From the IMG/VR virus record IMGVR_UViG_3300043467_001216: a DNA stretch of 64,000 nt; one strand, written 5' to 3'. Shown piece by piece: positions 212-63,174 of the stretch. The DNA is from a virus. Taxonomy: Duplodnaviria > Heunggongvirae > Uroviricota > Caudoviricetes. The notes under the pieces were generated by a model. The model was not told where the DNA came from. It ran no database searches and saw nothing but the letters and a program-made list of their open reading frames with translations. The number at the start of each line of letters is the position of its first letter. Position 1 is the stretch's first letter. The position numbers and the translations under genes were made by a program.

Positions 212-682
212 ATGAAGAATACTATTAAACGAATATTATCTGAAGAGGTTGATAAAAAAATTCAAACCTTATTAAATTACGTTCAAAAAGATGGGTTAAT
301 TAAAGGTTCTAAATTGGTTGGTGGTTATAAAAACCTAAAAGAGATTTTAAAAGGAACTGACTTTCTAACTAGAGACGTTATGGTTAATACCATTATTGGT
401 GTTTGTAAAGAAAAGGGTGGATTTTCAATGCAAGAATTAGGGTTGGAAGAAATTAAACTTGATGAAGGAGAGACTTTATTAAGAAATTTAAGTTATATTG
501 ACAAAAATGGTATTGAAGTAGTTACATATGAAATAGGTGACGATGGTTATTTTGATGAAGAACCTGTTGATTGGTTATCATTCAACTATGATTCAAAATT
601 CCGCAATGGTAATTATGTTTTAGATACCATTCATTTGTACGAAATACTTGATGCCGTTATAGATGTTTATGGAAAATTGTAA
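212..682 (+). CDS. Leader-tagged hypothetical protein (paralog of 699-1190)
   Basis: MKNTIKRILSEE leader; TATTTAT at 201-207; first ~55 aa nearly identical to next ORF. Confidence 0.85.
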   Translation: MKNTIKRILSEEVDKKIQTLLNYVQKDGLIKGSKLVGGYKNLKEILKGTDFLTRDVMVNTIIGVCKEKGGFSMQELGLEEIKLDEGETLLRNLSYIDKNGIEVVTYEIGDDGYFDEEPVDWLSFNYDSKFRNGNYVLDTIHLYEILDAVIDVYGKL

Positions 683-698
683 TAATATATTTATTGGT

Positions 699-1190
699 AT
701 GAAGAATATTATTAAACGAATATTATCTGAAGAGATTGATAAAAAAACTCAAACATTATTAAATTACATTCAAAACAATGGGTTAATTAAAGGTTCTAAA
801 TTAGTTGGTGGTTATAAAAACCTAAAAGAGATTTTAAAAGGAACTGACTACTTAACTCGTGAATGTATGCTTAAAACAATTCAAGATTATTTTAATCAAC
901 CGAATGCTCGTAATTATTTGGGTTTAAATAATATTGGTTTAGAAGAAATTGAGTTAGAAAAAGGTAAAGACCATTTAATAAATTTAACTGGGTTGTTTAA
1001 ACAAGGTTATGATGTGAATGTTTATGAGAAAGATGAGTTTGATGATTGGCATGAGGTTCACTCAACATCAGTTCAGTACGATGATATGGATGTGAATAAA
1101 AAACCATTATTAAAAACAATTCACTTATACGAATTGATTGATGGCGTTATGGAACAATATGAGAAAGATACTAGTGATAAATGGTATTAA
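699..1190 (+). CDS. Leader-tagged hypothetical protein (paralog of 212-682)
   Basis: Start moved to ATG 699 (MKNIIKRILSEE) after TATTTAT at 688-694. Confidence 0.85.
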   Translation: MKNIIKRILSEEIDKKTQTLLNYIQNNGLIKGSKLVGGYKNLKEILKGTDYLTRECMLKTIQDYFNQPNARNYLGLNNIGLEEIELEKGKDHLINLTGLFKQGYDVNVYEKDEFDDWHEVHSTSVQYDDMDVNKKPLLKTIHLYELIDGVMEQYEKDTSDKWY

Positions 1191-1210
1191 TTTAAAAATC
1201 TAAATATATT

Positions 1211-1241
1211 GGGGATAACTAAATAGTTATCCCTTTTTTTT
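1211..1241 (+). terminator. Rho-independent terminator
   Basis: GGGATAACT-aaat-AGTTATCCC followed by T-run. Confidence 0.85.
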
Positions 1242-1265
1242 ATTGGTAAAGTATTTATAGATATA

Positions 1266-2378
1266 ATGGAAGAAAAAGTTAAAAAAATAGTTAATAAAAT
1301 TGGTTATAAGAAACTAATAGATTCCACAGGATTAACTATGGATAAGATATTATCTATGTTAGGTAAAGATTGGGAAGATGTTGAAACTCAGTTAGAAATA
1401 ACCAAAAATTTTGTTTATTTCAATGATTTAACTGAGGCATTATTTATTGAGGTTGTAAGAAATGATGGTGATTATATTATTAAACCACATATTAATCCTG
1501 GAACTGCTGTTAATACTGATTCTTGGTTTGATAGTCATTTTTGTAATATGATTAATAAATACGTTCCGTTTAAAGTTGAACCTTCTTGGTCTAAATATAA
1601 TCCCGAATGTAAAATATTCATTAATAGTGAAACATTTAAATCGGATGAGGATGACGAGGAAATGTCATTACAGGAATCAATCAAAAGAGTATTAAACGAG
1701 GAAACCCAAAGAATTAGTAATGAACAATTGATTGAAATTTTTTACTCACGATTAACTAAAAAGGGGGAAATAAATTTCAAGGGGATAATTTTAAAACCTA
1801 AATTAGAAGACGATGGTCAAAAAAGAATAATCTTTAATATTGATAATCCAAATGATTTATCTTACAGTCAAGCGGTTATTGAAAATTATATTGATAAAAT
1901 GTTTAATAAATTTATTAAAATATTTGGGCTTGATAGATTTAAAATTCAATTTAAGTTTGATTCCTACCTTATAGTTAACACACCCGAAGAATTTTACATT
2001 AATAAAACTGATTACGACAATATTAGACAAAGTATTGTTAATGTTAAAAAGTTTAGAATTAAATACTTCAATAAAAAAGTTGATTTAATTGGTGATGTTA
2101 AATTAGGTTCAGATGAGTTCTGGGTTAATGTTAGTGGTAGTGAAGTTAACTTAACTATTAATGCGAGATTAACTAATTTTAAATTAACTAATAATGATAA
2201 TCAAGTAACTGAACTATCGGATGATGAGTTAAATGATTTCTTAAACGAAGGTAGTAATGGTGATAAATATATTGATTATATCCAAGACGAATTATATGAT
2301 GAAGCAATGAATTATATATGGAATATGACTACGGTGACGGACCAAGATAATATGTATATAAATGTTGATTTAGTATGA
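1266..2378 (+). CDS. Two-module hypothetical protein with internal leader-like segment
   Basis: 370 aa ORF; internal MSLQESIKRVLNEE; TATTTATA at 1252-1259. Confidence 0.85.
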   Translation: MEEKVKKIVNKIGYKKLIDSTGLTMDKILSMLGKDWEDVETQLEITKNFVYFNDLTEALFIEVVRNDGDYIIKPHINPGTAVNTDSWFDSHFCNMINKYVPFKVEPSWSKYNPECKIFINSETFKSDEDDEEMSLQESIKRVLNEETQRISNEQLIEIFYSRLTKKGEINFKGIILKPKLEDDGQKRIIFNIDNPNDLSYSQAVIENYIDKMFNKFIKIFGLDRFKIQFKFDSYLIVNTPEEFYINKTDYDNIRQSIVNVKKFRIKYFNKKVDLIGDVKLGSDEFWVNVSGSEVNLTINARLTNFKLTNNDNQVTELSDDELNDFLNEGSNGDKYIDYIQDELYDEAMNYIWNMTTVTDQDNMYINVDLV

Positions 2379-2860
2379 GGTTACAAGATAAAATAAGAAG
2401 AATATTAAGGGAAGAGGTTCAAGGTTTAAATGAAAACGATGAACTAACTAATCGTATATTAGATAAGATTAATAGTTACGGGATTGATTCATTGAGTAAA
2501 ATGGAACGAAGATTTCTTGATAACAAATCTCAGGACATTGAAGATGATGAGGTTTCTGACATTGCTAGTATTGATACAGGTTATGAATTTAATGATAATA
2601 TTGATGGTGTCGATATTAGATTCATTTATGATGGTTCAGAAGAATGGGATGATGACCCTGTGGAATTTAAACATATGGGACAATTCTTTTATGATGATGA
2701 AGAATATTATGGAACAATGTATACCGACGAAGATTTAAACGTTCATTCATTTGATATACACGATGGTGAAGATTTTGTTGACCTGAATGTTGACCTTGAA
2801 GATGGTCTACTTGAATTCTTCCAAAAAGTGGGGGATAAGATTAAACAAAATATGATATGA
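2375..2860 (+). CDS. Acidic leader-tagged protein with DUF6576-like helix motif
   Basis: MRLQDKIRRILREE; ILDKINSYGIDSLSKMERRFLD; C-terminus resembles 34038-34469. Confidence 0.8.
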   Translation: MRLQDKIRRILREEVQGLNENDELTNRILDKINSYGIDSLSKMERRFLDNKSQDIEDDEVSDIASIDTGYEFNDNIDGVDIRFIYDGSEEWDDDPVEFKHMGQFFYDDEEYYGTMYTDEDLNVHSFDIHDGEDFVDLNVDLEDGLLEFFQKVGDKIKQNMI

Positions 2861-3456
2861 ACCTACAAGAAACTATAAGAAGAATAATAAGGGAAGAATC
2901 CGAATATGGTGGTGGCATTTTTTATCACAATTCAGACTATAATATTGATTTATTCAAACCACAACTTAGAAACAGAAAGAAAAATAGTTATTTATTTTTC
3001 TCAAACGAGCCTAATACATTCATTGATAGAAAATACACATATGAGGTTAAATTAAAATTTGACCCAAATAGGGTATTCAACACATTCAAACATATTAATG
3101 ATTATGGAATCAAATATACTTTAGAAGAATACAAAGATGAGGTGTTAGATTTATTTGAAAATAATGTTGACTATTTTATTGATGAATGGAATAGAACGGG
3201 TGTTGACAGTGTTGAAGAAGTAATGGAATATTTTGTGAGTGATAAGAATGGTGATGAAGATGATATGGTTGGTTTATTATATTATTTTATTACAAAATGG
3301 AATGATTCGTGGGCGGTAATTGAAACTGATAAGTTTTTAGATTTTATTGAATCTAAAGGTTATTATGGTTTTGTAACATTAGAAGAGGGATTAACTAATA
3401 TCGCTTGTAACGATTTTGAATCTATTGAAATAATTAATAAAAGAAATATGTGGTAA
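2857..3456 (+). CDS. Leader-tagged putative ADP-ribosyltransferase-fold protein (ART-PolyVal-like)
   Basis: FYHNS..IDLF, LFFS, YEVKL, KGYYGF pattern by eye. Confidence 0.45.
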   Translation: MNLQETIRRIIREESEYGGGIFYHNSDYNIDLFKPQLRNRKKNSYLFFSNEPNTFIDRKYTYEVKLKFDPNRVFNTFKHINDYGIKYTLEEYKDEVLDLFENNVDYFIDEWNRTGVDSVEEVMEYFVSDKNGDEDDMVGLLYYFITKWNDSWAVIETDKFLDFIESKGYYGFVTLEEGLTNIACNDFESIEIINKRNMW

Positions 3457-5354: not shown

Positions 5355-5360
5355 TTTCAC

Positions 5361-5399
5361 ACCCCATCTGTTAAAGTTGGGGTTTTTTTATTATATTTG
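5361..5399 (+). promoter_or_regulatory. Terminator-promoter cassette
   Basis: ACCCCATCTGTTAAAGTTGGGG, T-run, TATATTTG at 5392-5399; near copies at 8082 and 10627. Confidence 0.75.
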
Positions 5400-5418
5400 A
5401 TGAACACTAAAACGAAAT

Positions 5419-8060: not shown

Positions 8061-8081
8061 AATTAATATAAAAAGAAATGA

Positions 8082-8121
8082 AACCTCATCTGTTAAAGTT
8101 GGGGTTTTTTAATTATATTTG
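8082..8121 (+). promoter_or_regulatory. Terminator-promoter cassette
   Basis: CATCTGTTAAAGTTGGGG, T-run, TATATTTG at 8114-8121. Confidence 0.75.
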
Positions 8122-8138
8122 AAGAAACAAATTGAGAT

Positions 8139-10621: not shown

Positions 10622-10626
10622 TTAAC

Positions 10627-10664
10627 AACCCCAATGATAAGTTGGGGTTTTTTTATTATATTTG
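10627..10664 (+). promoter_or_regulatory. Terminator-promoter cassette
   Basis: AACCCCAA...TTGGGGTT, T-run, TATATTTG at 10657-10664. Confidence 0.75.
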
Positions 10665-10682
10665 AAGAAACAAATAAAAACT

Positions 10683-10904: not shown

Positions 10905-11170
10905 GTATGACCAAAGGAATGGTATTGAATTACGGACAAGCTATGAAACTTGGAGACATAGAAGATAAAATTGAATTATACGTAATGACTAACTATCCTG
11001 ATAAATCTTTCGGGTCACCGAATAATATATTGGGGAAATTCGGTAAAGAATTCTCCAAAACAACTTGGGGTAAATTATCGAAATTGGCTAAGACTGATGA
11101 GGTTTTACTATCATTAGTTAATGAGTTTAATGTAGAATTATTAAATGTGAAAATCACTAACGGATTATGA
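10901..11170 (+). CDS. Hypothetical protein
   Basis: ATGA overlaps on both sides. Confidence 0.7.
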   Translation: MSMTKGMVLNYGQAMKLGDIEDKIELYVMTNYPDKSFGSPNNILGKFGKEFSKTTWGKLSKLAKTDEVLLSLVNEFNVELLNVKITNGL

Positions 11171-12489
11171 ATTATACCGAAAAATATAAAGAGGGGTTTT
11201 ATAAACGTATTGAGAAAGAACTCAATCAATGTGAGATTATATATAACCCAAACACAAAAGGGATTTGGTTTGTTAACCGAGAAAGAAAATATTGGTTCCT
11301 TGAATATAAAATTGAAACCAATTACCTGTGGTGGAGATATGATTACTTCAAAAAGATTACAAGTTTGCTAGCAATGACTAGTGAGGTGTTTCAGGAATTA
11401 ATCTCTGAATGGGTGGAAAATAAACTAAATGCTAAGGTAGGTAGAACTGAATTACACAACTTAGATGAAAATACCGCGGTGCAAGACACCCTAAATTGTA
11501 AGGTAGACTCAACTTTTAGATATGGGAATGCCCCTCGTTTTGAGGTGGAAGAGACCCTAAATTGTAAGGTAGACTCAACAGTTTCCAGAGATTCATATTT
11601 ACCAATTCCGGTGGATGACACCCTAAATTGTAAGGTAGACTCAACTCAAGGAGTGGTTGGAACAATTAACCCCTGGGTGCAAGACACCCTAAATTGTAAG
11701 GTACTCTCAACGCAGTATCTTCTCGATTTGGAGCGTTCTGGGGTAGAAGACACCCTAAATTTTAATGTAGTAAAAACAGTAAGTATTAATAAATTTATTC
11801 CGAGGGATGTGGAAGATACCCTAAATTGTAAGGTAGACACAACGGGAATGGGTTACGGAGATTCTGCCCAGGGGGTGGAAGATACCCTAAATTGTAAGGT
11901 AGTCTCAACATGGGCGGGTAGAGAATTAACCGAAGATGAGGTGGAAGAGACCCTAAATTTTAATGTAGTAAAAACAGTAAGTATTAATAAATTTATTCCG
12001 AGGGATGTGGAAGATACCCTAAATTGTAAAGTAAACAGAGCCCAATGGTACAAAGATGGGAATGAATTACTTGTGGAAGAGACCCTAAATTGTAAGGTTG
12101 ATTCAATTTATTTTGATGAAAATGAAAATCGTGGTGTGGTAGAAGATACACTAAATTTTAAGGTAGATTCAACACTTGGGGTTTTTCAAAACGATGAAAT
12201 TTTGGTGGAAGAGGTCCTCAATTGTAAGGTTGATGAGGTAAATTGGTTTAACGGAAAACATAGAACACAGGTGGAAGAGACCCTAAATTGTAAGGTACTC
12301 TCAACATCATATATTCAATCATCGCTTCCTTTAAGGGTAGAAGATACCCTAAATTGTAAGGTAGATTCAACTTTTTGTGGAAGAAACACACGCTTCTTGA
12401 GGGTAGAAGATACCCTAAATTGTAAGGTAGACTCAACGTGGTCCCTATTAGATGACTGCGAAGATGAGGTGGAAGAAACATTAAATTAA
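11167..12489 (+). CDS. Protein with ~80-aa N-terminal domain fused to 16 units of 22 aa (VEDTLNCKVDST + 10 variable aa)
   Basis: 440 aa uninterrupted ORF; repeat variation is partly synonymous. Confidence 0.8.
   Translation: MNYTEKYKEGFYKRIEKELNQCEIIYNPNTKGIWFVNRERKYWFLEYKIETNYLWWRYDYFKKITSLLAMTSEVFQELISEWVENKLNAKVGRTELHNLDENTAVQDTLNCKVDSTFRYGNAPRFEVEETLNCKVDSTVSRDSYLPIPVDDTLNCKVDSTQGVVGTINPWVQDTLNCKVLSTQYLLDLERSGVEDTLNFNVVKTVSINKFIPRDVEDTLNCKVDTTGMGYGDSAQGVEDTLNCKVVSTWAGRELTEDEVEETLNFNVVKTVSINKFIPRDVEDTLNCKVNRAQWYKDGNELLVEETLNCKVDSIYFDENENRGVVEDTLNFKVDSTLGVFQNDEILVEEVLNCKVDEVNWFNGKHRTQVEETLNCKVLSTSYIQSSLPLRVEDTLNCKVDSTFCGRNTRFLRVEDTLNCKVDSTWSLLDDCEDEVEETLN
11412..12489. CRISPR. CRISPR-like array in frame within a CDS: 36-nt repeat, 16 spacers of exactly 30 nt
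   Basis: Consensus GGTGGAAGATACCCTAAATTGTAAGGTAGACTCAAC starting at 11412+66n (n=0-16); first copy degenerate, last truncated at the stop codon; spacers unrelated except two identical ones; no cas genes in window. Confidence 0.55.
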
Positions 12490-13447: not shown

Positions 13448-13486
13448 TATCAAAGTCAATTGCCGATTATTTTAAAACTATTAACG

Positions 13487-13524
13487 TGGGGTAATGAAAG
13501 TTATCCCTTTTTTTATTATATTTG
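13487..13524 (+). promoter_or_regulatory. Terminator-promoter cassette (near copy of 3790)
   Basis: GGGGTAATGAAAGTTATCCC, T-run, TATATTTG at 13517-13524. Confidence 0.75.
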
Positions 13525-13550
13525 TTCTACACTAAAAAACAGAAGGATAT

Positions 13551-15923: not shown

Positions 15924-16722
15924 AATATATATAGGGATTACACTATTCATTCCTAACTCCCGTTCCGTTAACACTCCACTACGTTATCCATTCATACTAT
16001 AACCCTATATATATTTTCCCCCCATTATAACTGTCCCCCATTCTATGACAAGACTTTGATGAGGTAATCTATCACAGGTTTACCCACTAAACAATGGATT
16101 TAAGAACACTTCACTTACGTGAAGGTATATGACATCCATTTAATAACGAAACCTTCTCATAGTGGTTTTATTTTAAGTTACTATTCTATCCTCCTATATT
16201 GGGGTAAACCCCATCTTACTACAGGATATATTATAACTTATTCTACTAAACCTTATAGTGATTTTATATATAGTCTCTAATGACGGGGGTCTTATTATGT
16301 CCCACTTTTTACCACTGACGTTCCCGTTGAAGTTATACTATAACGTCCTAAAGGACTGTCCCCCGGCTATACACCATAACTATCTTTATTCGCTGGGTTT
16401 TATATATACCTAATAAATTACCTCTAACACTATCATCAGGGGTAATAAATTGGTCCTGACACTATCAACAACTAAACTTCTAGTGTTAAATTTATATGAA
16501 TGTGGTAAGATGTGGGAACTCAAAACCCCGTCAAGCGTGGGGTAAAGGATTATCCCCATCGTCAAACACGACTGACATTCTGACAAAATCAAGTTTTTTA
16601 ACATAAAAAGTTATTAACAATTCCCCCCTGACATAGTGTCAGACTAAAAAGTTATCAACAGGGTGTGGGGATTTAATATGAACCAATACACTATTTAATT
16701 GTTCATAACTATATTTAATGAT

Positions 16723-17010
16723 ATGGAAATACTAAATGACTTCAACATAGAGATAGTAAATGAATCCCCAATATATAAAGTGGTCTATTCATTAGAGAAC
16801 TATTCAGGGACCTGTGTATATACAGAGACATCCCCACTGTCTAAACTTCAATCAGGAAACATATATCTATTAACCCATTCAGATATGGGGGATGTATTAG
16901 AATATATACATAAGAAAACCCCACTGTCTTCAGAGAAGTTCAATGAGGTCCAAATGGGAATCAGGACTCATTCCCTGACTCAACTAATTAATTTCTTTAC
17001 TCTACCTTAG
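16723..17010 (+). CDS. Hypothetical protein
   Basis: ORF from ATG 16723 inside control region. Confidence 0.45.
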   Translation: MEILNDFNIEIVNESPIYKVVYSLENYSGTCVYTETSPLSKLQSGNIYLLTHSDMGDVLEYIHKKTPLSSEKFNEVQMGIRTHSLTQLINFFTLP

Positions 17011-17162
17011 AAGAGGTCGTCGTCACTAACTCCAACAACGTGTCTCCTCCACCACAATACAAACCTGTGGTCTTCAGGTAGTCTCCCAACAATATACTCA
17101 ATCACTATGAACGATATGATTATCAGGGAGATAAGACCAATCACTATAAGAAATGTTTTCAT
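17007..17162 (-). CDS. Small membrane protein (51 aa)
   Basis: Hand translation MKTFLIVIGLISLIIISFIVIEY...WWRRHVVGVSDDDLF*. Confidence 0.6.
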   Translation of the reverse strand: MKTFLIVIGLISLIIISFIVIEYIVGRLPEDHRFVLWWRRHVVGVSDDDLF

Positions 17163-17214
17163 AGTTAAAATATAAACATTTATAGTGGGGGAATCAATTA
17201 TTATCCGTAACTTA

Positions 17215-17380
17215 GTACCGTCACTTACGGGAGTAGTTAAGACGGGCGGACTATATACTTAGTGTGGGGAGTTCTAAGGGAACCTGCTTATAACCCCCAA
17301 GTCTTACTACACTATAAGGCAGGTTGGAGTCTACCCTCTTAGAGATTCATTCTATCCCTGACCCGTCTCGGTATTACCAT
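17215..17380 (-). ncRNA. Candidate rod-like structured RNA
   Basis: Nested complementary segments; TATCTTTG promoter on minus strand at 17389-17396. Confidence 0.45.
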
Positions 17381-17840
17381 TGACTTATCAAAGATACAAA
17401 TTATTATCATACCACGCACTACATTCCCCCATCATAGTTATTAACATCTTACTAACTGACACACTGTCACCCCCAAGAAGTTATCAACATCCCCACTGTT
17501 AATAACTCCACTATGACACACTGTCAGGTTAATAACTCTATTTGGATATATCATTTATTTGACTTGACCCCCATACATAACGTTACAGACAGGGAGGGGT
17601 AATTTGGTTTAAACAGTCAGACAGGGGGAGATATACTCCCTACCACCCCCCTATACCCCTATACACCCCTCCCCCCTACGTATCCCCCCTCCCCTTCCGG
17701 CTATTTTGGGGGTCAAAAAGGGGGGATAATGCCTTTGAGAAAGCGTGTAACTAAAAACTCTAAAAAAATTTCTGGAAAAATTTTGGGGGAAAAGGGACCT
17801 CCTATTTAAACGGGGGTGTATTTATAATAAAAAATTATAT

Positions 17841-18245
17841 ATGAAAAAAATAATAAGATTAACTGAGTCTGATTTGATTCGAATAGTAAAGAGGGTTATT
17901 AATGAGTCTGATGATTATGATATAATTAAATTTAATAACGACGATTATTTACTTGGGGGTGGTTCTTTTTTTAGTGGTGAGAAACCTAAAGTACAAACTC
18001 GTCTTGAAAGAGCTAAACTACAACTTCAAGTTGCAATACTTAAATTGACTCACGAAGTTCCATCTAATTTATCACAAGAAGAAAAAGATGAGTGGAGTGT
18101 ATATTTAAAATCATTTATTGAATCGGCATTTGATATTGTTGGTGATAATGAGGAAGACATTGAAGACCTAACCCCAATTTCTCAAAGGTTAAGTCTCCAC
18201 ATAGACAATGTGTTAGATAAGAAATCAATTAAAGAAATTGATTGA
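17841..18245 (+). CDS. Leader-tagged hypothetical protein
   Basis: MKKIIRLTESDLIRIVKRVINE; TATTTATA at 17819-17826. Confidence 0.85.
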   Translation: MKKIIRLTESDLIRIVKRVINESDDYDIIKFNNDDYLLGGGSFFSGEKPKVQTRLERAKLQLQVAILKLTHEVPSNLSQEEKDEWSVYLKSFIESAFDIVGDNEEDIEDLTPISQRLSLHIDNVLDKKSIKEID

Positions 18246-18383
18246 TATTAAACCCTTCCTTCAACGGAGGGGTTTTTTGTTATATGTTTAAATTTCCTAA
18301 AAAAATCGACATATCTAAAAAGGGGTTAATAGTGAAAAAAAATTTCTGGAAAAATTTTAGAGTATTTATAGGAAAAAGTATAT

Positions 18384-18956
18384 ATGAAAAAATTTATTAT
18401 TACAGAAGAAGAAAGAAAACATATAATGGGTTTATATGAAGAGAATGTGAATAACCTACCTGAGTTGGGACCTGAGAGATTAAGAAGTCCTAAATCTCAA
18501 CAAATAAAAAAGGAACAAGAATTTTTTAATAAAAAGTATCCTGAGTTCAAGATTCCTGTTGATGGTAATTGGTTAGATAAAAGTTTTAATGATGCGATGG
18601 TAAAGTATATTACAGAAAAAGGTGGGACACCGATGTATTGTAAAACAGGTGATAATTATTGTCCTGAAGATGAAGATGGTGTTGTTTATACTACTGATAG
18701 TAAGATACGTTATGAATTACAACAGGAAATGAAAGGTGGTGATAAACAAGAACCAAATAGTGATGATTGGATGAATATACCTCAAGATACTGTTTGGGAA
18801 TATAAAAATAAAGATGGTAAATGGTTTGGTAGAAAAATGGGTGACCCAAGTAAAAAAGAATATGATGTTTCAAAATACCCTACTACCGTAAAACGATTAA
18901 ACGACTATAAGTCATCATTGGATGCTGCGAAGAAAATTGAAAATGAAAAAGGTTGA
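18384..18956 (+). CDS. Leader-tagged hypothetical protein
   Basis: MKKFIITEEE; TATTTATA at 18363-18370; C-terminal DxxWxY..xxxW motif shared with 32769-33626. Confidence 0.85.
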   Translation: MKKFIITEEERKHIMGLYEENVNNLPELGPERLRSPKSQQIKKEQEFFNKKYPEFKIPVDGNWLDKSFNDAMVKYITEKGGTPMYCKTGDNYCPEDEDGVVYTTDSKIRYELQQEMKGGDKQEPNSDDWMNIPQDTVWEYKNKDGKWFGRKMGDPSKKEYDVSKYPTTVKRLNDYKSSLDAAKKIENEKG

Positions 18957-19545: not shown

Positions 19546-19560
19546 TAGGTATTTATTGTT

Positions 19561-19905: not shown

Positions 19906-19984
19906 TATACGACCCCTTCTTTATCGGTGGGGTTTTTTATTTGACCTCATCATTTAATTTCTGTATAATTAAATAAAAAAGATT

Positions 19985-20290: not shown

Positions 20291-20452
20291 TATAATCCCC
20301 CATTCTTTTTGAGTGGGGTTTTTTATGCTTATATATTTGGGGGAATAAAAAAGGAAGAAAATATCTTATATACCGGTAACCGTGTCCGACCTTCGGTCGT
20401 CTTTTTGTTTTCCCCCCGCCCGCGATTTATTATTTGGTGAGTATTTATTGAT

Positions 20453-21621: not shown

Positions 21622-21622
21622 T

Positions 21623-48780: not shown

Positions 48781-50550
48781 ATGATATCACTAGAAAAAAA
48801 CACACGATACTGTTTTTACACCTCAGTAGTTGTGATGACAATGTTTTTGATAATAAAACTTTTAGTGGTGTTTAATTTTCTACCCCTATGTAATTCAGTG
48901 ATGTGGGCTGAATTTATCTGTTTTGTTTTATTTATCCCTCTTTTTTTCAAAATAATTTATGATTATGTGAAAAAAAATAAAGAATCGGTTAAATTAAACT
49001 TTTATGCTAGAAATTTAAATGAAACTTTAATATCTCAGACACACAACCATTTATTCTATGAGGGAAATGTTAATGAAGGTGCTAAATTATTAACTAAAGA
49101 AGTTACTAATAGTATATGTGCCGACAGATGTTCTATTTGGTTATATAACAAAAAAAATAACGGGATTGTTTGTGAACAATTATACGAGAAAAAAGACGAT
49201 GAATGGTTTCAAGGTGTTGAAATATTTGAGAAGGATTTTAAACCGTATTTCGAAGGGTTAAAAACTAACCCAATCATTATTGCGAATGATGTTGACTTAC
49301 ATCCTGCAACAAGTTGTTTTAAAGAAACGTATTCAGGACCCCTTGGTATTAGAGCAATGTTAGACGTTCCAATTATTTATAAGGGAGAAGTTATTGGTGT
49401 TATTTGTATTGAAAGTTATACCGTTAGAGAATGGCATAAAGTGGAAGTAAATTTCGCTGAAATGTTATCATCATTGTATTCATTCGCATATTCTGTGGAA
49501 GAAGGTAATGAACTTAAAAATGAATTATCTGAGTTCGAACATTTTGTTGATTCATCAGTATTGGTTAGTAAAGCAGATAAAAGAGGTAAAATTACATATG
49601 TGAACAAAAAATTCGAAGAGGTATCAGGATGGTCATTGGAAGAATGTTTGGGTAAAGACCATAGAATTGTTAATTCTAACATTCACGATAAGAAATATTG
49701 GTCTAATATGTATAAAACTGTGAAGTCAGGTAAAATTTGGAATGACTTGGTTATCAATAAAAATAAAGATGGTGAATTATATTGGGTTGATACATATATT
49801 AAAGCCGAATTTGATGTTGATAATGGTAAACTAAAAGGTTATACCTCAATTAGACAAGACGTAACTGAAATCCATAAAAACATTGCGGAAATTAATAAAA
49901 AGAACACGTATCTAGAACACGCCGCGAAGATTCTAAGACACGATATGCACTCAGGGATTAATACATACATCCCAAGAGGTATTAGTTCATTAGAACGAAG
50001 ATTAAAACCTGAAGATATTGAAACATTAAAATTGGAGGCCCCACTTAAAATGTTGAAGGAAGGTTTGAAACATACTCAAAAAGTTTACAAGGGAGTTTAT
50101 GAATTTACCAATTTGGTTAAGACTGATGTTGTTTTAACTAAGGAAACTCATAATCTTAAAGATGTCTTAAACGCTTACCTATCCTCAACAGCTTATTCAA
50201 GTCAAGTGGCGATAGATTGGTTACCAACAATAGAAATTAACGAATCATTATTCTGTACCGCGATTGATAATCTAATCCGTAATGGTTTAAAGTATAACGA
50301 TTCTGACGCTAAAATGGTTGCTATCTTTATGGAAAATGAAGAAAATATTGCAATACAAGATAATGGTAGAGGTATGACACAAGAAGAATTTGAACACTTG
50401 TCATTACCATATAATAGAAAAGACGGTCAAAAAGAATCAGGTACAGGTTTAGGTTTAAATATTTGTATCGCAATCCTACACGAACACGGTTTCACTATTA
50501 AATGTGAAAAAAATGAAGTGGGAACTAAATTAACAATTAAAATAAAATGA
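48781..50550 (+). CDS. Membrane sensor histidine kinase (2TM-GAF-PAS-HisKA-HATPase)
   Basis: GAF (LDVPI..G.VIGVIC), PAS (ITYVN, GELYWV), H-box LRHDM, N-box NLIRNGLKY, DNGRGM, GTGLGL. Confidence 0.93.
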   Translation: MISLEKNTRYCFYTSVVVMTMFLIIKLLVVFNFLPLCNSVMWAEFICFVLFIPLFFKIIYDYVKKNKESVKLNFYARNLNETLISQTHNHLFYEGNVNEGAKLLTKEVTNSICADRCSIWLYNKKNNGIVCEQLYEKKDDEWFQGVEIFEKDFKPYFEGLKTNPIIIANDVDLHPATSCFKETYSGPLGIRAMLDVPIIYKGEVIGVICIESYTVREWHKVEVNFAEMLSSLYSFAYSVEEGNELKNELSEFEHFVDSSVLVSKADKRGKITYVNKKFEEVSGWSLEECLGKDHRIVNSNIHDKKYWSNMYKTVKSGKIWNDLVINKNKDGELYWVDTYIKAEFDVDNGKLKGYTSIRQDVTEIHKNIAEINKKNTYLEHAAKILRHDMHSGINTYIPRGISSLERRLKPEDIETLKLEAPLKMLKEGLKHTQKVYKGVYEFTNLVKTDVVLTKETHNLKDVLNAYLSSTAYSSQVAIDWLPTIEINESLFCTAIDNLIRNGLKYNDSDAKMVAIFMENEENIAIQDNGRGMTQEEFEHLSLPYNRKDGQKESGTGLGLNICIAILHEHGFTIKCEKNEVGTKLTIKIK

Positions 50551-51539
50551 GTAAAAAATTTAAAATACTATCAATAGATGGTGGAGGACTTAGAGGTCTA
50601 ATCCCCCTATTGATATTAAAAGAAGTTGAGAAAATAACCGGAAAGAAAATTTACGAGTTATTTGATTTAATAGTTGGAACGTCAACAGGTGGTATAATCG
50701 CTTGTGGATTAACCGCAAGTAAAGACGGTAAAACTCCGGTATTGTCAATTGACAAATTGATTGAATTATACACCACAAAAGGTAATGTGATTTTCCCATA
50801 TAAAAATAATATCTTCAATAAAATCAATTCGGTATTCAATCCTAAATTTTGTCCTGAAGGATTAGACAATGAGTTGTCAAATTACTTTCAAACATTAAAA
50901 TTGAGTAACACATTAAAACCAATTATTGTAACATCATATGATATTAGAAATAATGAAGTTGTAATGTTTAAAAGTCGTAAATCAAATGAAGTAGGTTATG
51001 ATTGTTTACTGAAAGATGTTTGTAGAGCAACATCAGCGGCACCAACTTATTTACCTTCATATGAAATGAATTATGGTGGTAAGTTAAGAACTTGTATAGA
51101 TGGTGGTGTGTTTGTAAATAACCCCTCATTGGTAGGTATATCGGATGTCGTAAGAAATACTTATGGGTTTGGTGAAATTAATGTTGAGGATATCTCATTA
51201 TTTTCTTTAGGTACAGGTATTTATACAGAAAACTTAGGAGTTAAAGAAACTAAGAGCTGGGGGTTAAAAGATTGGGTTAAACCAATCACCGATGTTATGT
51301 CACAAGCAACCTCAAAAGTTGTTGATTATGAGTGTAACGAGTTCTTAGACAATTATCTACGTGTTCAGGTAACAATAGATGATGAAAGTAAAAGTGATAT
51401 GTCAGATTCAAGAATTGAAACGACAAATTATTTGATTAGTAGAGTAAACACTCAAGTTTTAAAGAACGTTAATAAATTAAACGAAATAAAAGAATTTTTA
51501 AAAAAGTTAGGTAATGATAGAATCAATCTTATTAGTTGA
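50547..51539 (+). CDS. Patatin-like phospholipase
   Basis: DGGGLRG, GTSTGG, SAAPTY, DGGV. Confidence 0.95.
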   Translation: MSKKFKILSIDGGGLRGLIPLLILKEVEKITGKKIYELFDLIVGTSTGGIIACGLTASKDGKTPVLSIDKLIELYTTKGNVIFPYKNNIFNKINSVFNPKFCPEGLDNELSNYFQTLKLSNTLKPIIVTSYDIRNNEVVMFKSRKSNEVGYDCLLKDVCRATSAAPTYLPSYEMNYGGKLRTCIDGGVFVNNPSLVGISDVVRNTYGFGEINVEDISLFSLGTGIYTENLGVKETKSWGLKDWVKPITDVMSQATSKVVDYECNEFLDNYLRVQVTIDDESKSDMSDSRIETTNYLISRVNTQVLKNVNKLNEIKEFLKKLGNDRINLIS

Positions 51540-51951
51540 TGACGAGGATTTATTCCACTTAGTATTTGAGGACGCATGTTCATTATTAGATATTAGTTTA
51601 TCACTAAAATCTGTGAACAGTTCTGATGAAGCCGCAAGGATGTTTAAACAATGGTTTGATTCAGGTGACCATAAAGAAAAACCTGAATGTGTATTTGTGG
51701 ATTTAAATTTAATTGGTTCAGCATTTGATGGGATTGAATTAGTTAGAAAGATAAATTTTGAATACGGTAACCACGTTGTTATTGGAATTATTTCATCATC
51801 AAATGAACCATCAGAACAAGCGAAAGCGGTACAAGCCGGAGCACAGTTTTGGTTAGTTAAATCAGATGAAATTGAACCAAGATTAGAAGAGTTCAGAACA
51901 GATTACCCAAATTTTAAAAATAGAACACAAACATTTAAAGTTTACAAATGA
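51514..51951 (+). CDS. Single-domain response regulator (receiver)
   Basis: ILLVDDE, VFVDLNL, ISSS, GA..WLVK. Confidence 0.9.
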   Translation: MIESILLVDDEDLFHLVFEDACSLLDISLSLKSVNSSDEAARMFKQWFDSGDHKEKPECVFVDLNLIGSAFDGIELVRKINFEYGNHVVIGIISSSNEPSEQAKAVQAGAQFWLVKSDEIEPRLEEFRTDYPNFKNRTQTFKVYK

Positions 51952-52625
51952 TAAAGTTTAGTGCAAATACTAAAAAACAATTATTAGACCTTTACAAGGC
52001 CAAGAATATTGGCCTTGAAGGTAATTTATTGAAAGTAGTTGATTCTGAAGAAGATTCTGAGTTTTCTCAATACATTAAATCCTGTATTGATAAAGATAAA
52101 GAATCAAGAAAAAAACGTTTAGATATAACTAAACAAATTCAAAACAAAAATACCGAACTTGAAAATTTAAATACCGAGAATACCCGAATATTAGAAGAAT
52201 TACAAATAACCTTAGAAAATGTCGAAACATCTAAGAAACAAATTGAATCTCAAAATACCGAACTATTATCTTGGAAAGATGAAAATGAGAGAATTCAATT
52301 AGAACTCCAAGAAGAAATGAAACGAACTGAATCTGCAAGAGAAGAGGCGGAGCACGCTAAAGCAAACGCACTTTCTGATTTAGATTTGTTACAGAAAAAA
52401 ACCCAAACAGAATTAATGGGTAATATTGTTAAAGTAGCCTTAGGTGTTATTATGTTTGTTGCAGTTATTACAACCGCAATGTATGTATTCTCAATTGTGA
52501 TGGGTAAAGAAGTTAACACAATCGGACCAGCTTGGAGTAATATGTTCGGAATCCTATTAACTAACGCATTTAGTATCGTTGGGACAATAATGGGTGTAAA
52601 ATACGCAACTAAAGATAAAGATTAA
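51948..52625 (+). CDS. Coiled-coil protein with two C-terminal TM helices
   Basis: Long heptad region then two hydrophobic helices. Confidence 0.8.
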   Translation: MIKFSANTKKQLLDLYKAKNIGLEGNLLKVVDSEEDSEFSQYIKSCIDKDKESRKKRLDITKQIQNKNTELENLNTENTRILEELQITLENVETSKKQIESQNTELLSWKDENERIQLELQEEMKRTESAREEAEHAKANALSDLDLLQKKTQTELMGNIVKVALGVIMFVAVITTAMYVFSIVMGKEVNTIGPAWSNMFGILLTNAFSIVGTIMGVKYATKDKD

Positions 52626-52783
52626 TCTTTCTTAACCACCTTTTTTACCGTTTTATATTTAACCTCAACTTCATATGGGTTAACCATACTTCTTTTACTA
52701 TCATATTTCCAAATAGTGATATAATCTTCAAACTCGTGGACTTTTTCCCACTTCTTATGTTCTATTTTTACTTCTTTCGCCAT
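52622..52783 (-). CDS. Small hypothetical protein (53 aa)
   Basis: Hand translation MAKEVKIEH...IWKYD...; TATATTTG on minus strand at 52802-52809. Confidence 0.6.
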   Translation of the reverse strand: MAKEVKIEHKKWEKVHEFEDYITIWKYDSKRSMVNPYEVEVKYKTVKKVVKKD

Positions 52784-52829
52784 ATCTGTCAATTATTTTG
52801 TCAAATATAAGTATTTTTTTATTAAAAAA

Positions 52830-52866
52830 CCTGACAAATTATTTTTTTTAACTGACAATTTGTCAT
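52830..52866. promoter_or_regulatory. TGACA-n3-TGTCA operator-like site upstream of dnaK
   Basis: CTGACAATTTGTCAT at 52852-52866 plus half sites. Confidence 0.5.
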
Positions 52867-52931
52867 ACTTGACCTATTGGCATAGTTTTGTTATATTATC
52901 AATCAATAATAAATAAATTAATAAAAAAAGT

Positions 52932-54791
52932 ATGAGTAAAATTATTGGAATTGACTTAGGAACTACGAATTCGTGTGTTGCCGTAATGGAAGGGAATGAA
53001 CCTGTTGTAATCCCTAACAGTGAGGGAAAAAGAACAACACCATCAGTAGTTGGATTTGTTAATGAAGAAAGAAAAGTTGGTGACCCTGCTAAAAGACAAT
53101 CAGTTACTAACCCAACTAATACGGTTTATTCTGTTAAACGTTTTATGGGTTCATCATTTGATGAATGTGTGAATGAAACTACAAAAGTTCCATATTCTGT
53201 AATTAAAGGGAAAAACAATTCCCCAAGAGTAAAAATTGATAATAAAGAATTTTCACCACAAGAAATTTCAGCAACTATCTTACAAAAGATGAAAAAAACT
53301 GCGGAAGATTATTTGGGGTCAACTGTAACTGAAGCGGTTATTACTGTTCCTGCTTACTTTAATGACGCACAAAGACAAGCAACAAAAGAAGCTGGTGAAA
53401 TCGCAGGTTTAACTGTTAGACGTATTATCAACGAACCAACCGCTGCGGCATTGGCTTACGGTTTAGATAAGAAATCAAAAGACGCTGTTGTTGTTGTATT
53501 TGATTGCGGTGGGGGTACGCATGATGTTTCAATCCTTGAATTAGGTGACGGAGTATTTGAAGTAATGTCAACAGATGGGGACACTCACTTAGGTGGTGAT
53601 GACTTCGACCAAACAATTATTGATTACTTAGTAGGAATCTTCAAAGATGAAAATGGTATTGATGTTAGTAAAGACCCAATGGCGTTACAAAGATTAAAAG
53701 AGGCTGCTGAGAAAGCGAAAATTGAGTTATCATCAACCTCATCAACAGAAATTAACTTACCTTACTTAATGCCGGTTGATGGTGTTCCAAAACACTTAGT
53801 AACTTCTTTAAGTAAATCTAAATTCGAACAATTAGTTCAACCATTAGTTGACAGAACTATTAAACCGTGTGAAAGTGCGTTGAAAAGTGCGGGTATTAAA
53901 GTAACCGATATTGATGAAGTTATTTTAGTAGGTGGAACAACAAGAATTCCAGCAATTCAGGAGGCCGTTAAAAAATTCTTTGGTAAAGAACCTTCAAAAG
54001 GTGTTAACCCTGATGAGGTAGTTGCGTTAGGTGCGGCAATCCAAGGTGGTGTATTAGCTGGTGATGTAAAAGACGTGTTATTATTAGATGTTACCCCACT
54101 TTCATTAGGTATCGAAACTATGGGAGGTGTATTCACTAAATTAATTGAATCTAACACAACAATCCCAACTAAAAAATCACAAGTATTCTCTACGGCAGTT
54201 GATAACCAACCAAGTGTTGATATCCACGTATTACAAGGGGAAAGAGCGATGGCTAAGGACAACAAAACTATTGGTAAATTCCAATTGACTGATATTCCAC
54301 CATCACAAAGAGGTGTTCCGCAAATCGAAGTAACTTTTGATATTGACGCTAACGGTATCATTAATGTATCTGCGTTGGATAAAGGAACAAACAAAGTTCA
54401 ATCAATTAAAATTGAAGCGTCTTCAGGATTGTCTAAAGAAGAAATTGAAAGAATGAAATCTGAAGCTGAAGCAAATGCTGAAAACGATAACAAATTACGT
54501 GAGGAGGTTGAATTAATTAATAAAGCTGACAGTGTTGTGTTCCAATCTGAAAAATCAATTAAAGATTTGGAAGATAAAATCTCAGAAACTGATAAAACAG
54601 AATTAACTGAATTGGTTTCAAGTTTAAAAGAATCTGTTGAGAAACGAGAATTAGACGTTTTGGAGTCGAAAATTGAATCAGTCAATACTAAGTTCCAATC
54701 AGTATCTCAAAACTTGTATGATGAGTCAAATGTAACTGATGAGGTGAATGATAGTGATTTTTCTGATGTGGAATTTGACGAAGTGAAATAG
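52932..54791 (+). CDS. dnaK: Hsp70 chaperone DnaK
   Basis: [41 protein letters not shown]. Confidence 0.98.
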
Positions 54792-54859
54792 TCAATAGTT
54801 TTAGAAAAAATTTATCCCCAAGGTTGTTTTACTTTGGGGATTTTTTATATCTTTGAGAT

Positions 54860-56254: not shown

Positions 56255-56782
56255 TTATTTACCTTTTAACAGGTTAAGACATTGTTTTAAATATTCTTTA
56301 GACCTAGCCGATGGTGTTAATTCATCCTCTCTACTTTGAATATTAAGAATCCTTTCAATATCTTTAACTAATTCTGTCCCGTGTTCGTGTTCTTTGTAAA
56401 GTTCAATTACTTTATCCATTGCTTTATGACAATTACCTGTAGTTTCATCATAATAATTTTTATTTCTAAATTGATTTAAGTGATTCATCATTTCGTATGA
56501 CAAATGAGCACCACCATCTTTGATATCTTTGAATAATCTGATGTTATTTAAAATACCTAAAGTATCAACGATTGAATTTACACCGTTTTGTCTTTTATAA
56601 ACACCTGGTGAATAACTAGCGGCGTCTTTAACACTACCAACAATATCATCTAAATTAATGACGTTGTTTGTCAAACATCTTGGTTTTTGTTCTTCATCTT
56701 GTTCACCATTAGAAACTTGTTCCATTATTTTTGTTCGAATAATTTTTCTAAGTTCTTTTTCGTCTATTATAATTCTTTTCAT
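56255..56782 (-). CDS. Leader-tagged hypothetical protein
   Basis: MKRIIIDEKELRKII; TATTTAT on minus strand at 56808-56814. Confidence 0.85.
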   Translation of the reverse strand: MKRIIIDEKELRKIIRTKIMEQVSNGEQDEEQKPRCLTNNVINLDDIVGSVKDAASYSPGVYKRQNGVNSIVDTLGILNNIRLFKDIKDGGAHLSYEMMNHLNQFRNKNYYDETTGNCHKAMDKVIELYKEHEHGTELVKDIERILNIQSREDELTPSARSKEYLKQCLNLLKGK

Positions 56783-60606: not shown

Positions 60607-61830
60607 ATGAGCAACGAAACTTACATAAAAAAAATAAATAATTTACTGTCAAAAAAAACTTATCATTATGAGTCAGAAATATATTCATTTGACTATATTC
60701 TTGAGTTAACAGGTGAGATAAAACCATTGATTAGTATTGGTGAATGGAAAGACTTTTATTTATTGAATTTCAAGATTTTTAATCTTAATGATACCGCAAA
60801 AAGAATAATATCATTTCTTATAAAAGAACATCCTGAATATAAAACTGAAGATAAAGAAATTTATGATGTAAAAAAACCATTACGTCAATTAGGAATTGAA
60901 AGAAGTTTAGGTGGTATGGCCAGAAAAATGTTGAGAGCACTTAATATTAAAGAGACAATTACTAAAGAAGTTTTAGTATCTTTGTCAGAACTTGAGGGGG
61001 ATTATGAAGAAATTAAGTTAAATATTGATGAATCAAGTACAAGTATTTCGTCAGGTGAATATACCGGACCATTAGAATTGGGGTTAATAAAATGGAAAAA
61101 TAAAACACTATCACCATTTAGTGAGTTTGTTGATACTAAATTTAACCATAAGAAAAAACAAAAAACAGTTAAAAACAATGTGAAACGTGTTGTTGGGGTT
61201 TGGGAAAAAAATCCTGATGGTTCATATAAAACAAATCAACACGATGTACACACAATTAATGAAGGTATGATTGATAGATTAGCCATTAGAACAGTTGTTA
61301 AAGACATTGTAAGTATAATTAAACAAAATGAAGAAGGTGGATTTTATTTACCTGAAGATATTAATGGAGAACTTCAATATAAGTTAACAAATAAAAAGAT
61401 ATTATTTAGTGTTGAATTAACTTTACGATTTAATGACATTATTGGTGGGTTTGGTGTTAATGGTGCCTACTCACACGAGGAAGATGTTATAGAAATGGTT
61501 GTCGAATATAATCCAAAAACTATTAATCAACAATTATATGATTTAATTGGTGAGATTAACGAGGTATTGACTCACGAAATGGTTCACCTTAAACAAAATT
61601 ATAGGGGCGAATTAAACTATGAGGATGTTGAAGGTAGTAATTTAGAATATTACTCAAGAAATCATGAAATACCGGCACAATATTATGGGTTTAAACGTTT
61701 ATCAAAATTAAGGAAATTACCTTTAGAGGATGTTGTTAGAGAATGGTTCGACACTCATAAAAAAACCCATATGTTAAATCCTGATGAGGTGAAAATCGTA
61801 ATAGAAAAAATACTTAATTATAAAGCATAA
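60607..61830 (+). CDS. Multi-module protein with C-terminal HExxH domain
   Basis: LTHEMVHLKQ...HEIPA; TATTTATA at 60580-60587. Confidence 0.8.
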   Translation: MSNETYIKKINNLLSKKTYHYESEIYSFDYILELTGEIKPLISIGEWKDFYLLNFKIFNLNDTAKRIISFLIKEHPEYKTEDKEIYDVKKPLRQLGIERSLGGMARKMLRALNIKETITKEVLVSLSELEGDYEEIKLNIDESSTSISSGEYTGPLELGLIKWKNKTLSPFSEFVDTKFNHKKKQKTVKNNVKRVVGVWEKNPDGSYKTNQHDVHTINEGMIDRLAIRTVVKDIVSIIKQNEEGGFYLPEDINGELQYKLTNKKILFSVELTLRFNDIIGGFGVNGAYSHEEDVIEMVVEYNPKTINQQLYDLIGEINEVLTHEMVHLKQNYRGELNYEDVEGSNLEYYSRNHEIPAQYYGFKRLSKLRKLPLEDVVREWFDTHKKTHMLNPDEVKIVIEKILNYKA

Positions 61831-61859
61831 AAAAAGGTCATCAATTGATGACCTTTTTT
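61829..61859. terminator. Bidirectional terminator
   Basis: Perfect palindrome AAAAAAGGTCATCAATTGATGACCTTTTTT. Confidence 0.85.
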
Positions 61860-61874
61860 ATTAATTAACAAATC

Positions 61875-62477
61875 TTATTTGTTTTTCAATTTACTAATTT
61901 TATCTCTATACTTGATAGCGTCTTCGTAATTTTGAGAATTAATCGCCTTGTTTAACAAAGTTGTTAAATCATTGATTTGTGAGTTGTTTTTTTCATAATC
62001 TCTGATTTCGTCTCTCAATCTGATAGCTTCTTCATAGTTTTGAGTATTAATCGCTTTGTTTAATGAAATTTTTAACTCAGTAACAGGAGAATTTGTTGTT
62101 GGTGTTGTTGTTTTTCTTTTTGGTGAGTATGTCGGCCACTCGTTAGTTGGGAAAAATGAAGACCACTCATTTTTAGTTAACCAATCTTTAGTTGGGAAAA
62201 GTGAATCCCAATTAGTTGGGTAATTGTAGTTAGATGGCCACTCGTTAGTTGGGTAATTAGAACTAACATAAACTGATTGTGTGTAATTTCCATCTTTAGT
62301 AGTATAAGTGTTTTTATACCATTTTGAACCATCTTCATTGTAACCTGTTTCAGTTTTAGTTTCACCTACAGGTTCACTAATTTTTTTTAGTTCATTATAA
62401 AAATTATCAAACAACGTAGTGTCGTTGAAAAAATTGTCTAAGCCACCATAAAATGGTTGATTTCTTTTTGAAAACAT
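61875..62477 (-). CDS. Protein with two UvrB/UvrC (UVR) motifs and PTNEW repeats
   Basis: LNKAIN.QNYE.AI..RD.I occurs twice. Confidence 0.85.
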   Translation of the reverse strand: MFSKRNQPFYGGLDNFFNDTTLFDNFYNELKKISEPVGETKTETGYNEDGSKWYKNTYTTKDGNYTQSVYVSSNYPTNEWPSNYNYPTNWDSLFPTKDWLTKNEWSSFFPTNEWPTYSPKRKTTTPTTNSPVTELKISLNKAINTQNYEEAIRLRDEIRDYEKNNSQINDLTTLLNKAINSQNYEDAIKYRDKISKLKNK

Positions 62478-62547
62478 AAATTTATTATTTTTGATTTATT
62501 TTATTAACAGAACTAATAATATACAACGTTTTCTTAAAAGTCAAATA

Positions 62548-63174
62548 TTATTTTCTAAAACGTTTAACAATTAAACCTAATAGTTCTTTTAAAGAAATAC
62601 CCCCAACATTAAGTGCAACAAACCCTGATAGTCTTTTAATAACCTCATAGATTTGATTTTCATTAAAATCCCCACTTGTAGATATTTGGTATATCAACGG
62701 TACTAAAGGTATTAAAAATGTGTAACCGATTATGTTTGAAGTTTTTTTTACACTAACACCTAAACTTTCAACAAAAGATAAGAAAGAATCTTTTAATAAT
62801 TCGGCTTTCTGAAGTCCGGCTTTATAAGTCTCATATAAACCTTTCTCTTTGATTTTTGAAATTAATAATCTTAATGGTTTTTTATTATCAATAATATACT
62901 GAAAGGCGATACCTGCCAATATTAAACTTCTTTCCATAGGAGAGACGGTTGGATATTCCCCCGATAAAAACTGTTCAACAGGACCCATTAGACCCCCAAT
63001 AGACATACTAAATGTTGCTAATATTGATAGGTCAAATTTAATTTGGTCCGAGGCCTCTTTAGTAATACGTTTCATTAAATTGTCATTTTCACCAATTGTT
63101 TTATCCATTTCTTCATTGGCCATTTCTCGTAAAATAACTCTCCTTTGTTGTTCAGTGATTATTATTGTTCTCAT
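62548..63174 (-). CDS. Leader-tagged protein with hydrophobic helices
   Basis: Start moved to MRTIIITEQQ at 63174; TATTTAT on minus strand at 63179-63185. Confidence 0.8.
   Translation of the reverse strand: MRTIIITEQQRRVILREMANEEMDKTIGENDNLMKRITKEASDQIKFDLSILATFSMSIGGLMGPVEQFLSGEYPTVSPMERSLILAGIAFQYIIDNKKPLRLLISKIKEKGLYETYKAGLQKAELLKDSFLSFVESLGVSVKKTSNIIGYTFLIPLVPLIYQISTSGDFNENQIYEVIKRLSGFVALNVGGISLKELLGLIVKRFRK

Follow-up and report, generated by a model that had tools for sequence, protein, structure and literature searches.

We analysed a stretch of 64,000 nucleotides (the window) from the Caudoviricetes virus record IMGVR_UViG_3300043467_001216, in which many proteins begin with the same kind of short peptide, here called the leader; genes and proteins that carry it are called tagged. 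The leader is shared far above chance, and selection acts on the peptide, not on the DNA that encodes it. It ends in L/I-x-Glu, a predicted cut motif for proteases of the gp21 type, with a Glu that is invariant with respect to Asp. We consider that the leader is probably (at about 60%) a capsid-targeting and cleavage propeptide of the T4 type, carried by a large and exchangeable set of cargo proteins. It would dock proteins made late in infection onto the core of the assembling prohead, where a gp21-type S77 protease would, judging from the motif, cut after the leader Glu and free the body inside the head; the body would then leave with the DNA at infection. A T4-like leader on a large modular cargo set was the original prediction. 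The indirect tests agree with it (S77 protease together with a gp23-type capsid protein, the L/I-x-E motif, promoters and co-occurrence), whereas the domain labels that it gave to the cargo are not supported.

The leader and its forms

The window was joined with a 126,190-base virus record that overlaps it at positions 514-64000, and the resulting contig of 126.7 kb was analysed. A single base, at window position 43480, differs between the two. Open reading frames (ORFs) were called with a crude greedy longest-ATG caller, and the ORF counts, including the 193 ORFs of the contig, are approximate. All 31 coordinates listed in the original prediction are ATG starts of ORFs of 64-377 aa, and 29 of the 31 fit one of three leader patterns; 19561 (MRFILSEN) is a near miss and 33626 on the minus strand (MKNTLNEEIY) is weak. 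The ORF at 28595, absent from that list, carries a class C/D-like leader. On the whole contig, 33-40 genes are tagged. The core [ILV][ILVRK][ILV][TSDN]E begins within the first 7 residues in 26 of the 193 ORFs, when 0.56 would be expected from its internal frequency (15 in 35,917 positions); one of the 26 (16410, minus strand) is a probable false positive. As a control, only 1 of 217 ORFs matches the core in the 150 of 160 kb examined of Flavobacterium phage immuto, the nearest cultured phage (capsid identity 39%). The leader is therefore no general property of AT-rich flavobacterial phages. Literature searches with the motif strings returned no paper, and neither topic searches nor the available part of PMC7824862 (supplementary files aside) gave a description of the leader.

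The bodies behind the leader had been called unrelated, which is mostly right: once 25 residues are trimmed, BLASTP at 1e-3 links tagged proteins to one another only within paralogue groups of 5, 2, 2 and 2. However, three paralogue groups share a second short module (LLGG..NF), so that the distinct bodies are better counted as about 20 rather than 30.

At 7 to about 23 residues, the leader is a short N-terminal peptide, basic and amphipathic, built on the core hydrophobic-(L/I)-x-Glu. It occurs in four forms, also referred to as classes:

Form A: MKIIITE
Form B: MKKxIRLTESDLxRIVKRVIxE
Form C: xFIITEEExKxIxxLY/H
Form D: IKRILSEE / IRRILREE

In an alignment, all four share the single core hydrophobic-(L/I)-x-E. 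The long form, B, reads as form A with form D behind it; it repeats the core and contains two cut-type sites. A pattern scan of IMG/VR gave at least 584 matches; among those listed, 411 were confirmed and 80 related loci were kept. In these loci, the median pI of the first 23 residues is 9.7 for tagged and 7.9 for untagged proteins. By inspection, the leaders lack the uninterrupted hydrophobic core after a basic N-terminus that marks a Sec or lipoprotein signal, since a charged residue occurs every 2-4 positions; typical lipoprotein-like signals are present on other ORFs of the contig, e.g. 4895 and 5139.

Leader forms swap on orthologous bodies. In the 56255 family, the leader is of type A, B or C depending on the phage; the families of 21623 and 29574 have A or D, and that of 42245 has C or B. 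Indels sit immediately behind the leader, and Gly/Pro/Asp/Ser-rich sequence often comes next, which suggests that the leader is an element separate from the body. A second short module, hydrophobic-LLGG-x-x-NF-x-K, is found behind the leader in several families that differ in other respects, and mid-protein in 20453 (LLGG regions: 212-682, 699-1190, 20453-21202, internal, 21199-22045, 27309-28299, 34474-35385 and 35388-36664). This hints that, besides the leader, small N-terminal domains may be shuffled too. The tagged ORFs of the window are as follows:

212-682, plus strand: class D (MKNTIKRILSEE); TATTTAT at 201-207
699-1190, plus strand: class D, paralogue of 212; TATTTAT at 688-694
2375-2860, plus strand: class D (IRRILREE); DUF6576 match
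2857-3456, plus strand: class D (IRRIIREE)
17841-18245, plus strand: class B (MKKIIRLTESDLIRIVKRVINE); TATTTAT at 17819-17825
18384-18956, plus strand: class C (MKKFIITEEERKHIMGLYE)
19561-19905, plus strand: near-match leader (MRFILSEN); TATTTAT at 19550-19556
20453-21202, plus strand: class A, internal LLGG module; opens a five-gene tagged unit
21199-21621, plus strand: class A, LLGG family (5 paralogues)
21623-22045, plus strand: class A, LLGG family
22052-22246, plus strand: class A (MKIIITEEQY)
22243-22515, plus strand: class A
22584-22982, plus strand: class B; TATTTAT at 22560-22566
24193-24864, plus strand: class C
25477-26610, plus strand: class A; weak nuclease-like lead for the body
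26700-27239, plus strand: class C-like leader (LSEEEKNSIREQH); body very acidic
27309-27821, plus strand: leader MDIKITE, LLGG module
27811-28299, plus strand: leader MDIKITE, paralogue of 27309
28595-29503, plus strand: class C/D-like leader; body with long hydrophobic stretches
29574-30140, plus strand: class A; orthologues with class A or D
30137-30523, plus strand: leader MKVVIDE
30867-31484, plus strand: leader MKILISE
31487-32104, plus strand: leader MKVIISE, paralogue of 30867
32769-33626, minus strand: weak leader (MKNTLNEEIY); TATTTAT at 33631-33637
34038-34469, plus strand: class A
35388-35810, plus strand: class A, LLGG family
35820-36218, plus strand: class A, LLGG family
36242-36664, plus strand: class A, LLGG family
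42245-43054, minus strand: class C; class B-like leader on the orthologue in locus L082; weak cell-wall-hydrolase lead
44290-44667, plus strand: class C
56255-56782, minus strand: orthologues in 5 loci with A-, B- or C-type leaders on the same body
62548-63174, minus strand: leader MRTIIITE; body hydrophobic

The cleavage-type motif and the head protease

In T4, a capsid-targeting sequence (CTS) on the internal proteins IPI-III and on Alt, a diverse cargo, is removed by gp21 (partial texts of PMC9026906, PMC3012670 and PMC5694885). This CTS measures 10-20 aa (PMC5694885, in part). According to the available passages of PMC9026906, the gp21 cut falls behind the Glu of L/I-X-E, targeting needs no more than the first 10 residues of IPIII, and processing of the IPIII leader is governed by residues 8 and 10, Asp at position 10 being blocking.

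The cut-site counts that follow pool the 80 related loci and our own contig. After N-terminal h-h-h-[T/S] (h, hydrophobic), Glu follows in 352 of 394 cases and Asp never, whereas inside proteins the same string is followed by Glu 58 times and by Asp 65 times out of 639. At the second site of class B leaders, P1 is Glu in 198/200 and Asp in 0/200; background frequencies are 7.7% for Glu and 6.6% for Asp. P3 is L or I in 344 of 381 cases at site 1, while at site 2 all 201 have I, V, L or M. Sites of this type are also conserved across relatives in the proteins expected to be substrates: the capsid protein N-terminus keeps LINE|A in 6/6, the protease keeps GIL(I/V)E in 4/4, and the product of a 239-aa gene between portal and protease has a 16-aa N-terminus ending in L(L/I)E|S in 5/5.

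PHROGs and Pfam searches place a T4-type head module on the contig, beyond the window, with genes for TerL (large terminase), portal, the 239-aa protein, a 157-aa protein, protease, a scaffold-like protein and capsid. The protease, an ORF at contig position 107941, is of the gp21 type (Peptidase_S77, PF03420, E 5.8e-22 in Pfam), the scaffold-like protein, at 109106, is acidic and the capsid protein belongs to the Gp23 family; the 239-aa gene is at 106445. Leader and protease occur together: S77 is encoded in 9 of 10 large tag-bearing contigs (5/5 plus 4/5), the only miss being a 55%-complete fragment, and in 6/6 of those that are at least 90% complete.

The likeness to the T4 CTS extends to several traits. 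Both systems place a short N-terminal leader on otherwise unrelated proteins (7-23 aa here, 10-20 aa in T4), in genomes with a gp21-family (Peptidase_S77) protease. In both, the leader ends in L/I-x-Glu; Asp, which blocks processing in T4, is avoided at P1 here, and the cargo set is diverse and fast-changing. There are also clear differences. The leader is not a sequence relative of the CTS, as no similarity was found at E<=1 in 50,697 phage records, a collection that presumably includes T4. Four interchangeable forms exist here, the long one with two cut-type sites, and the scale differs: T4 has a handful of such genes, whereas 33-40 are present on these 126.7 kb and a single form accounts for 7,007 clusters in public data. 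Furthermore, the function of the present system is predicted from sequence, and its host would be a member of the Bacteroidota.

The ejection and inner-body proteins of phiKZ and SPN3US offer a second comparison, here limited to the available parts of PMC5694885, PMC9026906 and PMC7411985. These phages also have jumbo genomes with dozens of head proteins, a diverged gp21-type protease cutting after Glu and paralogues whose conserved N-termini are thought to target the prohead. However, most of their propeptides exceed 100 residues, against 7-23 here, and are family-specific, in contrast to one shared short peptide; the head module of our phage is plainly T4-like, with its Gp23 and S77 Pfam matches. 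As about 50 head proteins are reported in part of PMC7411985 for a 240-kb phage, 30-40 cargo species are not out of range.

The same motif evidence could be read in another way, namely that S77 or a paralogue cuts the propeptide and thereby times the activation of the protein, with no role in capsid addressing. One complete relative does have two S77 paralogues: the 269-kb genome G007 (the record of locus L083) contains Peptidase_S77 genes at 31291-31773 and 233494-233940. However, the T4 protease acts inside the prohead (PMC9026906, in the part available), and the part of the leader that precedes the cut site is far more conserved than cleavage alone would require. We judge this explanation improbable.

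Promoters, coding sequence and spread

Two promoter-like motif classes segregate on the contig. The host-type motif TAnnTTTG comes after terminator hairpins and ahead of untagged blocks. The other, (A/G)TATTTAT(A/T), is placed ahead of the ATG of tagged genes at one of two distances, 4 nt or about 13-17 nt. Besides the TATTTAT positions given above, the sites in the window are:

5355-5418, plus strand: example, ahead of an untagged gene, of a terminator hairpin with host-type TAnnTTTG (TATATTTG) behind it
8061-8138, 10622-10682, 13448-13550, 22983-23051 and 54792-54859: further host-type hairpin/TATATTTG sites
20442-20448 and 25466-25472: further TATTTAT sites

Counting motifs within 45 nt upstream in the 80 loci, TATTTAT precedes 251 of 407 tagged and 442 of 1,614 untagged ORFs (p 5e-37), whereas TAnnTTTG without TATTTAT precedes 2/407 and 212/1,614, respectively (p 2e-19). 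On our own contig, TATTTAT is found before 21 of 34 tagged and 37 of 159 untagged ORFs (p 2e-5). It is also located before TerL, portal, the 239-aa gene, protease, scaffold and genes of the downstream virion module. Because of the genes that it accompanies, TATTTAT would be a late promoter. With only 4 nt between TATTTAT and ATG, leaderless or near-leaderless mRNAs are predicted for at least 16 genes. In two metatranscriptome runs, only 5% of the sampled words were found; these come from contigs of relatives, with 5-39 differences per piece, and therefore show neither transcription of this phage nor its transcript starts. Uncovered parts carry no information.

That the shared start is a nucleic-acid signal (part of a promoter, a leaderless translation start or a handle for cassette recombination) could be proposed on the basis of this proximity, since in many tagged genes no more than 4 nt separate TATTTAT from the ATG. 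Leader codons are moreover biased to A-ending forms (ATA 66% versus 28% genome-wide). Weaker support comes from the contigs of relatives in metagenomes, which match a leader or promoter and then diverge, with short-sided joints. On the other hand, among 153 distinct class B leader DNAs the synonymous sites vary freely and the amino acids are kept, including six-fold switches for Ser (TCA/TCT/TCG/TCC/AGT) and Arg (AGA/CGT/CGA/AGG), and with Leu as TTA/CTT/CTA/TTG. Tags are also found on operon-internal genes without a promoter of their own, and head genes with the same promoter have no leader. The synonymous variation and the tags on promoterless operon genes argue for selection on the peptide. 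As the main cause, a nucleotide-level signal is ruled out by the variation in class B leaders, and we regard the explanation as a whole as very improbable.

Concerning the metagenome contigs, 71-90% of those from lakes that align at 85% likeness to window positions 17501-37500 match a short part and then diverge. This short part is often a leader, promoter or terminator, and many short-sided joints link the starts of different tagged genes. We read joints with short sides (20-40 nt, 85% likeness) as leader/promoter repeats in related DNA and not as proven rearrangements. They are compatible with cassette exchange among strains.

The leader is widespread among related phages. In the 80 loci, each chosen for at least one tag, the core is present on 347 of 2,048 ORFs versus 4.7 expected. 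Class B motifs are N-terminal in 185 of 191 cases; of the others, two are truly internal and four stand behind an upstream start that was probably miscalled. The 344 tagged proteins of these loci form 224 body clusters, and one body may have different leader classes in different phages. When residues 1-40 of a single class B protein were used as query, 450 of 775 candidate proteins of 125-399 aa were matched at E<=0.1, with near-identical leaders on different bodies and, in some, internal copies at module starts. With a profile of five class B leaders of our contig, at least 7,007 cluster representatives were matched at E<=0.001 (127 at E<=1e-10) among 1.84 billion. Several top matches hold two or three leader copies, a ranking favoured by summed scores. 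The metagenome proteins P0002, P0003, P0004, P0008 and P0024 also have 2-3 class B copies, at the N-terminus and at later module starts. Such multi-copy proteins look like polyproteins with a predicted cut-type site at each junction. Since 16-18 of 363 ORFs are tagged in a complete 321-kb relative, the 33-40 on our 126.7 kb constitute an expansion.

Cargo bodies, source phage and meaning

The ART-like, nuclease-like and lysozyme-like labels of the original prediction found no support, as searches against Pfam, PHROGs and PDB sequences gave no such matches. In Pfam, the 23 window tagged proteins searched gave one match (DUF6576 on 2375); none of 6 matched in PHROGs, and PDB sequence searches of two gave nothing significant. 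In a third PDB search, the Pro-rich linker of 78593 had a weak match of low complexity (E 9.6e-06). For four tagged proteins beyond the window (66610, 69028, 78593 and 112505), the Pfam matches are only sub-threshold or of low complexity, and PHROGs gave a single low-complexity match of unknown function. In the Atlas, a VgrG3-like C-terminal domain (0.89) for 42245 and NOV_C/PD-(D/E)XK (0.88) for 25477 are weak leads and, being below 0.9, no more than leads.

Among relatives, the 120 longest tagged cluster representatives of at least 90 aa gave few Pfam matches: PG_binding_1 in 3, DUF6576 in 2, and one each of LysM, VanY, OmpA, Phage_lysozyme, YkuD/Tlde1, sigma-70 (regions 2 and 4), GNAT, Phage_L5_gp82 and DUF3293. 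The cell-wall domains in this list fit proteins that leave the particle at infection. They are not what the internal proteins of T4 are known for.

Tagged bodies have the size of folded domains (median 146-163 aa). This bears on the idea that the leader is there to be recognized by a modifying enzyme, as are the leaders of ribosomally synthesized and post-translationally modified peptides (RiPPs), with which it shares the pattern of one conserved leader on many variable bodies. The bodies are not short cores, however, and the SPASM domain (PF13186) is present in 0/5 complete tag-bearing genomes, when the controls matched in 8/14 known genomes. A radical S-adenosylmethionine (rSAM)/SPASM maturase was rejected on this count, and we hold the RiPP-like explanation to be the least probable of those considered.

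The main rival of capsid targeting is that the leader, as an amphipathic helix that binds protein or membrane, gathers many late proteins at some common partner that is not the prohead, such as a chaperone, a host factor or the inner membrane, without any cleavage. The leader is indeed basic and amphipathic (pI 9.7 versus 7.9), cell-wall domains do occur among the cargo, and proteins with several leaders exist. However, Asp never takes the place of Glu (0/394 and 0/200), when a purely structural or binding helix would be expected to show some replacement, and P3 obeys the gp21 rule. A phage Hsp70 is encoded in only 2 of the 5 complete tag-bearing genomes; a phage chaperone is therefore not the partner. 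This rival appears unlikely to us, and a capsid-targeting and cleavage propeptide remains our preferred reading.

Several points weigh against this preference. The L/I-x-E motif is short and common. Phage immuto has an S77 protease and yet only 1/217 tagged ORFs, so the protease alone fails to explain the leader. The class B leader (40 aa) has no match at E<=1 in any cultured phage (tblastn, 50,697 phage records), and there is therefore nothing to borrow from a studied relative. TATTTAT also precedes non-structural genes, e.g. a histidine kinase, and the late timing is deduced. Body charge and pI do not differ between tagged and untagged proteins, 18 of 34 tagged bodies of our contig being acidic. 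Finally, several cargo domains act on the cell wall, which is not an obvious destination for what a contractile-tailed phage carries in its head.

The source is an uncultured freshwater T4-like phage, probably a jumbo phage. CheckV puts five relatives of 294-321 kb at 98-100% completeness, and with relatives complete at about 300 kb, the contig probably represents only a part of the genome. At a GC of 0.28-0.34, the window is AT-rich; megablast with 24 kb of it matched only a piece of thymidylate synthase. The phage occurs in 18 lake-water metagenome runs, 16 of which may be where this DNA came from. From the TAnnTTTG promoters and a nearest cultured relative that infects Flavobacterium, we infer a host in the Bacteroidota.

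Some other features of the window are worth mentioning. Region 48781-54791 encodes a GAF-PAS histidine kinase and a full-length Hsp70/DnaK (Pfam), and the ORFs between them look, by eye, patatin-like or like a receiver domain. An ORF-poor stretch of about 1.9 kb (15924-17840), rich in G/C runs (GGGGG, CCCCC) and dotted with short repeats, both direct and inverted, separates a block of untagged small ORFs from a tagged block. It has no Rfam match and no tRNA, and could be an origin or a module boundary. No RNA family of Rfam was found in the window, and the 440-aa ORF at 11167-12489 has no meaningful Pfam match.

A broader proposal, which we make tentatively and rate at somewhat less than even odds, is that a clade of freshwater T4-like phages of about 300 kb carries dozens of effectors in the head by means of a single Glu-gated address for loading and release. 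In the relatives, a sigma factor, an acetyltransferase, cell-wall enzymes and polyproteins with several cargoes would be among these effectors. Given the strict preference for Glu over Asp, new N-termini would be expected after ITE, LTE or VIxE. Proteins injected with the DNA are hard to find without virion proteomics; those of T4 include anti-restriction and host-modifying proteins. If the proposal is true, a simple N-terminal pattern would mark such proteins in a large uncultured phage group, and the 7,000-plus leader-bearing clusters would be a catalogue of injected phage effectors readable from sequence. The leader could also serve to load foreign proteins into capsids of this kind. Much of host take-over and counter-defence would then be delivered as ready-made protein, and the "internal protein" trick of T4, known from a handful of proteins, would have been expanded into a modular library of thousands of bodies.

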